DNA of 64,000 nucleotides from Escherichia phage ECML-363. Below, piece after piece: positions 1,854 to 40,011 of the stretch. Position 1 is the stretch's first letter; the number at the start of each line of letters is the position of its first letter. Both the position numbers and the translations under genes were made by a program. Location of the stretch: sequence record OL631483.1; one strand, given 5' to 3'. The notes under the pieces were generated by a model. That model searched no databases. It was not told the DNA's origin and was given only the letters and a program-made list of their open reading frames with translations.

Positions 1854-2858
1854 TTAACTTACCAATTCAATCCAAGCCGGACGAAGTACATCTTGCACCA
1901 TTTTAACTAATTCCTTTTTAATCAAAGAAGGATTATCCGCTTGAGTTAGAGTAATACCTTCACGAGAAGTTTCTTCCAAAATATCTTGGACAGTTAGCCC
2001 CATCACCTTTCCAAAATCCTTTAGACCAATTTCGCCAATTTTAGAAATAACGTTATTTACTCGGTTCAGTGTAACGTAACAAGCTAAAATTCCCACCAAT
2101 TTGTTATCAGCTTCTGACAATTCAACTTTAGCTTTAATAGGCTTATCAGACTTTTTCTTTTCACTAAATTTAGAATTCTTGCATTTGATGGCTACACGAT
2201 TGCGATTAGGCAGCCAAGAAGGATAACAAGGTTTCAATACATATCCTTCAGCGGTAAATACTTCGCCTTTGGCTTCGACATTCCAAACGCATTTATTTGC
2301 ATCAACTAATCCAGCATGGTCTACTGTAAAATTATAATCTTGGACGACAGAATCTAAATCATTTGGCAATTTAATAAGCTCTTCAAATTTACCGCGACCT
2401 AAAAGTGGAGCCATTTTAAATTTAAATGTATTGCAGAATGATTCCATCATATAATCATCGACATAAGTCACGTCACCACTTTCTGTAGTGACAATAATGT
2501 CAAATACATAGAAATCTTTATCACCATAATCAACATTCTTCTGAATGCCAGGTCCAGCGAATTCGCCAAAAACTTGATAAGTCACAACAGCTGAAGTTTC
2601 CATAATATCTTGTACTGCTTTAATGGAATCAGCGTAATTCTTTAGAATAATTTCATACCCAAAGAAATCTTCAGCAGGAAGAATCGGTCCAGTACGTTTA
2701 GCGCAAGTTACTTTATCACGCTCAATAATCAATGAGAAATTTGTGCCGTGAATCTTTTCACGAGCTACCCATTCGCCGCCAGTCAATCCCAAGCTATAAA
2801 GTTTTTCAATAAATTTAGAGTTGTAATGATTTTCAAGACTGCTATACTTTTTAAACAT
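1854..2858 (-). CDS. rnlB: RNA ligase 2 (Rnl2)
   Basis: 334-aa [46 protein letters not shown]... with nucleotidyltransferase lysine motif KIHG; matches T4 Rnl2 as recalled. Confidence 0.95.
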
Positions 2859-2867
2859 AATTAATCC

Positions 2868-3146
2868 TCAAAATGTAATTTCTAACCAATCACCATCACG
2901 CTGATCACTATTGACTTTAAAATTAAATCCTTCTTTTCTCAGCCAATCACCAATTTCTTCAGTAATCAATTTATCACGAGCAGTACAATAATAACTAAAA
3001 TATGTTTTACCTTGTTCAGCTGCTTTATTAGCAAGTTCTGAAAAATCTTTAATAAAACACTCTAGTTTAAACTGTTTACTTTTTAATGCTTTTTCACGTA
3101 ATTGATTAGCAAAATATTCATTTTCATAAAGATCATACTGTTCCAT
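2868..3146 (-). CDS. Hypothetical protein (T4 24.2 position)
   Basis: 92-aa ORF tightly packed after rnlB, same strand. Confidence 0.6.
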   Translation of the reverse strand: MEQYDLYENEYFANQLREKALKSKQFKLECFIKDFSELANKAAEQGKTYFSYYCTARDKLITEEIGDWLRKEGFNFKVNSDQRDGDWLEITF

Positions 3147-3348
3147 TTTTCACCTTTTTATTAATGTGTCTTTTTCTATAGACAACTTTTTCTCGAGTCT
3201 CAAATTTATTCTTTGCAGTCATAGCTCGAGCCCATAATACAGCCACTTCTTTCGCCTGTAAGTTTAATTCACGAGCAATTTCAATGAATGACTTTCCAGA
3301 CTCATGAAGTGTAAACACCACAACTTCAGTTCTCATAATCAATCTCAT
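3133..3348 (-). CDS. Small putative helix-turn-helix protein (T4 24.3 position)
   Basis: 71-aa ORF; segment SGKSFIEIARELNLQAKEVAVLWARA resembles an HTH. Confidence 0.55.
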   Translation of the reverse strand: MRLIMRTEVVVFTLHESGKSFIEIARELNLQAKEVAVLWARAMTAKNKFETREKVVYRKRHINKKVKNGTV

Positions 3349-37339: not shown

Positions 37340-37556
37340 ATTGTTTTTCCGTTAATACAGTAATATCATAGTAACAATCGGAAGAAGTTTTAACTGTGGA
37401 AATTTTATTATCAAAATACTCACGAGTCATTTTATGAGTATAGTATTTTTTACCATAAATGGTAATAGGCTGTTCTGGTCCTGGAACTTCTAACTCGCTT
37501 GGGTTAGGAAGTGTAAAAAGAACGGCACCAGAAGTATCTTTAAATCGTAAAATCAT
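37293..37556 (-). CDS. Hypothetical protein (nrdA.2 position)
   Basis: 87-aa ORF. Confidence 0.55.
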
Positions 37557-38413
37557 ATTGCCATTTTCCCTTTAATTGCTGGATGCGATTCATAATTTTC
37601 AAGGATAAAATCTTTCGGTTTCATGTATTCAGTTAACCAGTAAAGCTGTGTTTCGGTGTCACAATTTTCAAACTCTATAGGCCAATCAATTTTAAGTTCG
37701 CACAGTTCTTTAGGCTCACGGCGTAAAATTTCTTTACATTGTTCTACGTGATTCATATAGATATGAGTATTACCACCAGAAAATATCAAATCTCCTGGGA
37801 TAAGATTACACATCTTAGCCATAATATGCGTCAAGGCAGCGTACGAGGCAATGTTGAATGGCAAGCCCAAGAAAACATCTACACTTCTTTGGTACCATTG
37901 TAAATCAAGATAACCATTACGCACATTAAACTGATAGAACATATGACAGGGCGGTAATGCCATTTGATTGATTTCAGCTGGATTCCATGCTGAAACGATT
38001 TGACGTCGATCAGTTGGTAATTTTTTAATACGATCAATAGTTTCAACTAATTGATCCACACCACCGAAATCACGCCATTGTTTACCGTATATAGGACCAA
38101 GTTCACCACTATGATATCCTAGGTCTTTAGCTTGGTTTTCATAATTGTCATCCCAGATAGTTTTACCTTGAATAAGACTACCATGAGTAAGAAGACGTAA
38201 ATCATTAACATTGGTAGAACCAGAAATAAACCATAAAAGCTCAGCAATGCATGCATTCCAGGCGAGCTTTTTAGTTGTTACTGCAGGAAAGCCTTTAGTT
38301 AAATCCCAGCGTAATTTAGTACCGAACAAAGCAATTGTTCCTGTGCCTGTTCGGTCATCAGTTTCATAGCCATTTTCAAAAATGTCTTTAATTAAATCTT
38401 GGTATTGTTTCAT
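37553..38413 (-). CDS. td: Thymidylate synthase, uninterrupted
   Basis: 286-aa continuous ORF with TS active-site region ([33 protein letters not shown]). Confidence 0.97.
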
Positions 38414-38458
38414 TTAGTACCTTATATAAATTATAATACATTTTATGAAGCTAAATAA

Positions 38459-38806
38459 TCAATACGGTTTAGCATCAAATTTTCTCTCAATTTCAGGCGT
38501 GAAATATAATTCTTTACCGCGTTTGGAAAAGCGACCAATAATATGATAATTATTCTCATCAGACGTGATATTACCAATATCCATAGCTTTCAACCAAATA
38601 TCGATATTTCTATCCAACTTTATGTCAAAATTCCAATATGGAGAACTATTACCGAAAATACTGCAAGCGGATTCAGTAAAACAACTGCTATAAATCTTGT
38701 CTTTAGGAACTACTAATTGATAGACGCCTTTAATAAACTGAGGACCCTGCCATTTAGGTTGTTTCTCATCTTTTTCTAATAGAATAGGGTAATAATTAAA
38801 ATTCAT
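38459..38806 (-). CDS. Hypothetical protein between frd and td
   Basis: 115-aa ORF MNFNYYPILLEKDEKQPKWQGPQFIKGVYQ...; no motif recognised. Confidence 0.55.
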   Translation of the reverse strand: MNFNYYPILLEKDEKQPKWQGPQFIKGVYQLVVPKDKIYSSCFTESACSIFGNSSPYWNFDIKLDRNIDIWLKAMDIGNITSDENNYHIIGRFSKRGKELYFTPEIERKFDAKPY

Positions 38807-38825
38807 ATTTCCGCCACGCGTTATT

Positions 38826-39651
<826 letters not shown>

Positions 39652-39667
<16 letters not shown>

Positions 39668-40011
39668 TGAAAGGGGCCATAAGCAAATCCGCTATCTTTA
39701 ATCATTTTAATTAACGTTAACATTCCTTTGTTAACTGCTCGTGAGATTTCATCAAAAACTTCATCACTATCACCATAAAGATCGCTAAAAAGTTCTAACA
39801 CGTTCTTCTGAACTTTTAATTTACAACCAACAAATTCGCCTACAGTAAATTCGTTTCCGCCAACTCCAGCGTAAAACGTAATTACACCAGTTAATGGTCT
39901 TTCACTAGAACATAGGTCGTGTGATAAATTAATATAAGCCGTCCCGGGCGCAGTTTTAAGTTGGCAACGAATACTTACTCGAGAAATTCCAGCTACACGA
40001 ATGTCAGACAT
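39652..40011 (-). CDS. Hypothetical protein (frd.2 position)
   Basis: 119-aa ORF. Confidence 0.55.

Follow-up and report, generated by a model that had tools for sequence, protein, structure and literature searches.

A PHROG 1928 gene between the dihydrofolate reductase and thymidylate synthase genes of T4-like phages, and the probably derived empty junction of T4

Introduction

The seg, mob and hef genes of T-even phages are small genes that are present or absent between conserved neighbours in close relatives. In T4 itself (NC_000866), the dihydrofolate reductase gene frd lies at 145109-145690 and the thymidylate synthase gene td ends at 145112, giving a 4-nt ATGA overlap with no ORF between them, and the T4 td gene is interrupted by the intron that encodes I-TevI. 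Modular insertions and deletions in T4-type genomes have also been attributed to short repeated regulatory cassettes termed PeSLs (PMC2839356, PMC4122927).

This study concerns the frd-td junction in a 64,000-nucleotide stretch of Escherichia phage ECML-363 (OL631483.1), referred to as the window, where a small ORF separates the two genes. The ORF, here called ORF A, has already been deposited as a hypothetical protein from hundreds of T4-like genomes, and a PHROG exists for it; literature searches by gene name, accession, and PHROG identifier found no paper on it. New here are the description of a three-gene array at this junction (A-B-C), the putatively derived state of the junction in T4, a confident model of an OB-like fold, and several corrections of annotation.

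Results

The frd-td junction in the window

The gap between frd and td is 412 bp (38414-38825) and contains a single ORF of 115 aa. The three genes are as follows.

38826-39410, minus strand: frd, dihydrofolate reductase (Pfam DHFR_1, E 1.5e-18), flanking ORF A upstream
38459-38806, minus strand: ORF A, 115 aa, ATG start, beginning MNFNYYPILLEKDEKQPKW, a member of PHROG 1928
37553-38413, minus strand: td, thymidylate synthase, 286 aa, intronless (Pfam Thymidylat_synt, E 2e-96, full length), flanking ORF A downstream

The first of these genes is annotated as frd in near-identical phages. A preliminary description of this locus, made from the sequence alone, had stated that frd and td overlap by ATGA in T4 and reported an extra 115-aa ORF with its own spacers in a gap of about 410 bp. 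The overlap is as stated in NC_000866, with nothing between the genes; the ORF in the window does have its own spacers, 19 nt from the frd stop and 45 nt to the td start; and the same ORF is absent from the T4 reference at this position. Open frames of at least 115 codons arose in 8 of 5000 shuffles of the 412-bp gap, so a chance origin of the frame is unlikely.

Other parts of the operon also vary. Between frd.1 and frd, the window has an 81-aa ORF (39410-39655, minus strand; phrog_3183), which is found in T2 and not in T4, and a 119-aa DUF7247 protein (39652-40011, minus strand), which is not in T4 but precedes frd in contigs L015 and L016 as well; together these ORFs form a further polymorphic stretch of the frd/td operon. 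Protein identity between DHFR of the window and that of T4 (L001 9110-9691) is only 86%, while the flanking DNA is ~95% identical, and frd appears to be unusually polymorphic within Tequatrovirus. The td gene is intronless in the window; in T4, Lutter, and fHoEco02 it contains the group I intron that has I-TevI.

The features of the junction outside the coding regions are as follows.

38807-38825, minus strand: frd-ORF A spacer, 19 nt, with a weak Shine-Dalgarno-like stretch (GGCGGA) read from the sequence
38821-38829, minus strand: mini-frame ATGAAATAA (Met-Lys-stop), overlapping the frd stop and resembling the td start ATGAAACAA
38824-38832, minus strand: first copy of the direct repeat TAAATGAAA, spanning the last codon of frd, its stop, and 2 nt
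38408-38416, minus strand: second copy of TAAATGAAA, spanning the td start codon region
38414-38458, minus strand: ORF A-td spacer, 45 nt, containing the AAGG Shine-Dalgarno of td as well as a promoter-like element
38446-38455 (TTTAGCTTCA) followed by 38430-38435 (TATAAT), minus strand: the promoter-like element in the ORF A-td spacer, a MotA-box-like sequence and a candidate -10 box

The frd-ORF A spacer starts with AAATAA, which extends the ATGA of the frd stop into the mini-frame; the latter looks like a relic or duplicated copy of the td start. In the other spacer, TTTAGCTTCA resembles the MotA box of T4 middle promoters with a single mismatch; TATAAT or TAATTT follows at suitable spacing, and the AAGG of the ribosome-binding site comes after that. 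The Lutter record has a promoter annotated in the same spacer. In a generic promoter scan of the region, sites did not exceed the shuffled expectation, including a sigma-70-like match at 38462..38433, and a terminator scan found none between frd, ORF A, and td. The Rfam search gave no family match, only one sub-threshold Drosophila lncRNA model that is attributable to chance, and the spacer RNA fold is unremarkable (z = -1.9).

Relatives of ORF A and the A-B-C array

ORF A matches phrog_1928, a family listed with unknown function, with an E value of 3.1e-35 (residues 4-111 against positions 2-125 of the 126-position profile). Members of PHROG 1928 are ~95-130 aa long and were found here only in T4-like phages (Straboviridae and Marfavirus); they include gp155 and gp154 of Salmonella phage S16, CIP9_061 and CIP9_060, JD18_224, and hypothetical proteins of several hundred tequatroviruses. 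Searched exhaustively with an HMM, a set of 1.8 billion representative proteins yielded only ~21 clusters, all of them stand-alone proteins of 95-116 aa. Two long hits, P0021 and P0024, were considered as domain fusions and rejected as false positives, being repetitive eukaryotic or reverse-transcriptase sequences.

The position of the family is constant. Homologs with 27-45% identity to ORF A directly follow DHFR and precede TS in every locus examined (12 other loci), including those of Jiaodavirus JD18, Gelderlandvirus S16, Kanagawavirus CIP9, and Marfavirus VAC36 as well as seven metagenomic T4-like contigs or further phage genomes. The start of the homolog overlaps the frd stop in JD18, S16, CIP9, L009, L012, L015, and VAC36. 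No further member of the family was detected among all ORFs of the window by HMM search and hhalign, or in the 136-147 kb region of T4 by HMM search.

Many of the diverged loci have a second gene, B, of 113-130 aa, which hhalign identifies as a paralog of A (probability 98.9%, E 3e-17) and which belongs to the same PHROG. A search with a combined A and B profile returned only hypothetical proteins, none with a Pfam domain. The metagenomic T4-like contig L008 has three tandem PHROG 1928 copies (148, 106, and 95 aa) between DHFR and TS at 2245-3288. A third gene, C, of 68-69 aa (phrog_9550), lies directly before td in CIP9, VAC36 (L018 1953-2159), and contig L015, so that the order in several lineages is frd-A-B-C-td. 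Gene C was considered as a truncated form of ORF A and rejected, its sequence being unrelated.

Gene C also occurs apart from A and B. In some tequatroviruses a 206-bp insert at the frd-td junction is gene C, encoding 68 aa with 81% identity to the copy in L015; in fHoEco02 (L013 719-925) it has an ATGA overlap with frd and a TAATG overlap with td. Dhakavirus JS98 (EF469154; L019 1201-1404) has gene C without annotation. Homologs with 43% identity are found in Phapecoctavirus phages, from which it follows that gene C moves between phage families. Some records label gene C a flagellar biosynthesis protein, and this label looks spurious.

Junction alleles in Tequatrovirus and the direction of change

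The ORF A protein of the window has 100% identity with the ECML-363 database entry WCD43917.1, a hypothetical protein. A megablast search with the junction found 354 phage records having the full frd-ORF A-td arrangement at >90% nucleotide identity, and tblastn found the protein in 584 phage records: 362 with >90% identity, from Escherichia, Shigella, Yersinia, and Citrobacter tequatroviruses, and 222 with <60% identity, mainly from Klebsiella, Enterobacter, Kosakonia, Salmonella, Serratia, and Erwinia phages. Within Tequatrovirus, identity of ORF A is 95-99%. To count alleles, the T4 junction was used as the query and 60 evenly spaced hit records were taken, 56 of which cover the whole junction. 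A 416-bp insert corresponding to ORF A was present in 38 of these (~68%), the 206-bp insert corresponding to gene C in 12 (~21%), and the empty T4-type junction in six (~11%).

The preliminary description regarded ORF A as a lineage-specific insertion, and this is not supported: ORF A is the majority state among the closest relatives of T4 (the 362 records with >90% identity and ~68% of sampled junctions), and at least four other genera, along with the seven contigs or genomes noted above, have diverged homologs in the same place between frd and td. ORF A is absent from T4 and from the Mosigvirus RB69, where the empty junction is identical to that of T4 over 20 nt. In T2 (NC_054931; L014 ~1640-1990) ORF A is intact, and the 413-bp gap between frd and td is unannotated in RefSeq.

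Since ORF A is in the majority among close relatives and homologs have the same position in other genera, the empty junction of T4 is most simply a loss. Differential deletion is the simplest account of the genus as a whole, because A and C are complementary remnants of one array found at the same junction in one genus. An ancestral frd-A-B-C-td array would thus have been reduced in tequatroviruses to A only, as in the window and T2, to C only, or to nothing, as in T4. The end-points of deletion may lie in the repeated stop/start junction TAAATGAAA. The two 9-bp copies of this repeat match at 11/12 positions when extended and are 416 bp apart, just the length of the insert by comparison with T4; deletion between them regenerates the T4 and RB69 junction TATAAATGAAACAATACC exactly. 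The ATGA overlap of T4 is most likely the fully deleted, derived state, a polarity that we infer.

The reverse direction, in which a cassette from an L015-like T4-like phage was recently inserted horizontally into an ancestrally empty ATGA junction, appears unlikely, although several observations are in its favour. T4 and RB69 share one and the same empty junction, the repeat bounding the insert looks like a duplicated target, and ATGAAATAA after frd in the A allele resembles a duplicated td start. In addition, A is 62% identical to A of L015 where frd is only 47% identical, while the corresponding values for CIP9 are 43% for A and 44% for frd. These observations leave re-insertion, or exchange through recombination, some probability. 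However, A and C, which belong to the same ancestral array, are both found at this exact junction in different tequatroviruses and in the order expected from A-B-C in CIP9, VAC36, and L015; for neighbours in the array to have been inserted independently, twice, at a single site is less parsimonious than differential deletion, and Dhakavirus JS98 carries C as well.

Selection and conserved residues

ORF A is under strong purifying selection. Comparison with two tequatrovirus copies gave 9 synonymous and 1 nonsynonymous change in one case and 12 and 1 in the other (dN/dS ~0.02), comparison with copies of 62-65% identity gave dN/dS ~0.1, and the overall range is 0.016-0.10. The homologs and the low dN/dS mark ORF A as a real gene that is apparently translated. 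That it is an untranslated chance frame is barely credible: the missing annotation in the T2 RefSeq record and the weak Shine-Dalgarno would fit such a frame, but they are set against the dN/dS of 0.02, conservation of the protein down to 27% identity with shared motifs, a confident AlphaFold2 model, and the rarity of frames of this length among the shuffles.

In 35 A and B sequences, W19, G27, G91, K95, and G97 are invariant and Q16, Y29, R92, F93, and F102 are nearly so. The motifs shared by A and B are KQxKW, HG(I/V)Y, GN, and IGRFxKxG....F; conservation extends to no acidic, His, or Cys residue. The family is mildly basic, with a median pI of 8.6. Codon 82 of ORF A (38561-38563) encodes Ser, a residue common to SfPhi01 and ECML-363, at a position with F, Y, V, or L in 31 of 35 family members; Ser82 may weaken the protein in the ECML-363/SfPhi01 sub-lineage.

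Four BASEL records (MZ501046, MZ501050, MZ501089, and MZ501065) label ORF A a putative homing endonuclease. A free-standing enzyme of this type would account for presence or absence between two conserved genes, like that of seg and mob genes, and for proximity to td, which is the host of I-TevI in other phages. It is nevertheless very improbable here. Neither ORF A nor 24 family members have a GIY-YIG, HNH, LAGLIDADG, or other nuclease match in Pfam; the conserved residues are Q, W, G, G, K, and G, and His, Asp, Glu, and Cys are not among them; no nuclease is among the matches of the fold search; the gene keeps one position across genera and is not sporadically placed; and ORF A combines freely with or without the td intron. 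Mutual exclusion of ORF A and the td intron with I-TevI was considered and rejected: both are present in Lutter, only A in T2 and the window, and only the intron in T4, while fHoEco02 combines the intron with C. Given these combinations, presence of the intron is independent of the allele at the junction.

Predicted structure

The preliminary description could assign no domain to ORF A, and scans of A, B, and C with Pfam, NCBIfam, and PADLOC likewise gave no match. Searches of PDB sequences, whether by ORF A alone or by a profile, gave chance matches only (interferon receptor, dynein, and TagH). With a 24-sequence alignment, AlphaFold2 modelled ORF A with a pLDDT of 89.9 and a pTM of 0.82; with an alignment of only four sequences, the pLDDT was 56. 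The model has strands at 6-12, 27-34, and 62-64, a helix at 68-76, and strands at 80-82, 86-96, and 99-104. The high-confidence prediction for ORF A is a compact beta-barrel whose only helix lies between strands 3 and 4, in the OB-like order b1-b2-b3-helix-b4-b5. A structural search of the PDB with this model gave no significant match; OB-like hetero-oligomer subunits (RPA14/32 and Stn1-Ten1) rank highest among the weak matches.

Discussion

The reading preferred here, to which we give a probability of roughly 55%, is that ORF A is a genuine protein-coding gene of PHROG 1928, that the T4 junction is derived, and that the product is an OB-like, non-enzymatic, dispensable binding module of the pre-replicative period. 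The non-enzymatic part of this reading follows from the conserved residues, which form no nuclease or other catalytic signature. The product would be a binding module for single-stranded nucleic acid or a protein partner, and may pair with itself or with paralog B in the manner of small OB subunits. It would be expressed before replication on the transcripts of frd and td; pre-replicative expression together with these genes is suggested by strand, position, and the overlapping stops in other genera. Because T4 and RB69 do without ORF A, as do phages with C only, it is probably dispensable under laboratory conditions. The analysis demonstrates the gene, its family, its synteny, and the selection on it; the binding function, its partner, and its timing are points that we infer.

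The preliminary description also mentioned a small accessory or anti-defence gene. Such a product, a small early protein neutralising a host or immune factor and kept where the relevant hosts are met, is a possibility of some weight even if the odds are against it. Within a single genus the place between frd and td has three states (A, C, or empty), in agreement with the term accessory; PHROG 1928 occurs as one to three tandem paralogs; the small protein bears no enzymatic signature, and T4 and RB69 dispense with it; and C is also present in the unrelated Phapecoctavirus phages, so cassettes at this site do move. On the other hand, the position is strictly conserved across genera, selection is purifying (dN/dS 0.02-0.1) and not diversifying, PADLOC (which has defence-side models), Pfam, and NCBIfam gave no match, and variation takes the form of presence or absence, without rapid sequence turnover in Tequatrovirus.

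The constant position between frd and td could instead indicate that ORF A serves the thymidylate cycle or a dNTP-synthesising complex as an adaptor or accessory subunit, binding DHFR, TS, or their mRNA, with the fixed position and the stop/start overlaps securing stoichiometric co-expression. ORF A is between these genes in every genome examined, its start overlaps the frd stop in the seven loci listed above, and OB-like hetero-oligomer subunits head the weak structural matches. The order of replication and nucleotide-metabolism genes is, however, generally conserved in T4-like phages, and synteny alone is no functional link; T4, RB69, and phages with C only run the same pathway without ORF A; and ORF A of the window, with spacers on both sides, is not translationally coupled. 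An adaptor is accordingly rather doubtful, more so than the host-directed accessory, and an unspecified binding role takes what remains beyond these two.

A more specific proposal, which is speculative, is that PHROG 1928 is an unrecognised phage-specific OB-like fold and that A, or pairs of A and B, form a module physically tied to the DHFR-TS step. If so, the module could be an adaptor tethering thymidylate synthesis to ssDNA or the replisome, or a decoy or inhibitor acting against host machinery by which phage nucleotide metabolism is sensed or attacked, and repeated loss, as in T4 and RB69, would reflect host-dependent need.

Apart from function, the comparison corrects a bias that comes from using T4 as the reference: the ATGA overlap of frd and td is a minority state, present in about one in ten close relatives, and is probably derived. 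Annotation of the locus also needs attention, since A is missing in the T2 RefSeq record and mislabelled in the BASEL records, and C is missing in JS98 and called a flagellar biosynthesis protein elsewhere. PHROG 1928 is a compact, confidently modelled, and uncharacterised family with natural knock-outs in T4 and RB69 and a natural carrier in T2, so that its function is testable by simple genetics.

Comparison with known systems

ORF A resembles the seg, mob, and hef genes in being a small gene present or absent between conserved neighbours in close relatives, but it differs from them in having no nuclease motif or fold, an orthologous position across genera, and a low dN/dS. The PeSL-associated insertions and deletions described in PMC2839356 and PMC4122927 are similar to the variation between frd and td in that whole small genes are cleanly gained or lost between conserved neighbours, apparently via recombination of short repeats. 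They differ in the repeat itself: between frd and td it consists of the 9-bp stop/start junction TAAATGAAA, or of ATGA overlaps in the case of the C allele, and not of a promoter-stem-loop cassette. For the fold, the closest candidates are the RPA14/RPA32 core, Stn1-Ten1, RMI1-RMI2, bacterial SSB, S1, and HIN domains, the likeness being weak and that of a predicted model. Tequatrovirus lacks paralog B; in length class, motifs, and position between frd and td, members of the family are the same as ORF A.
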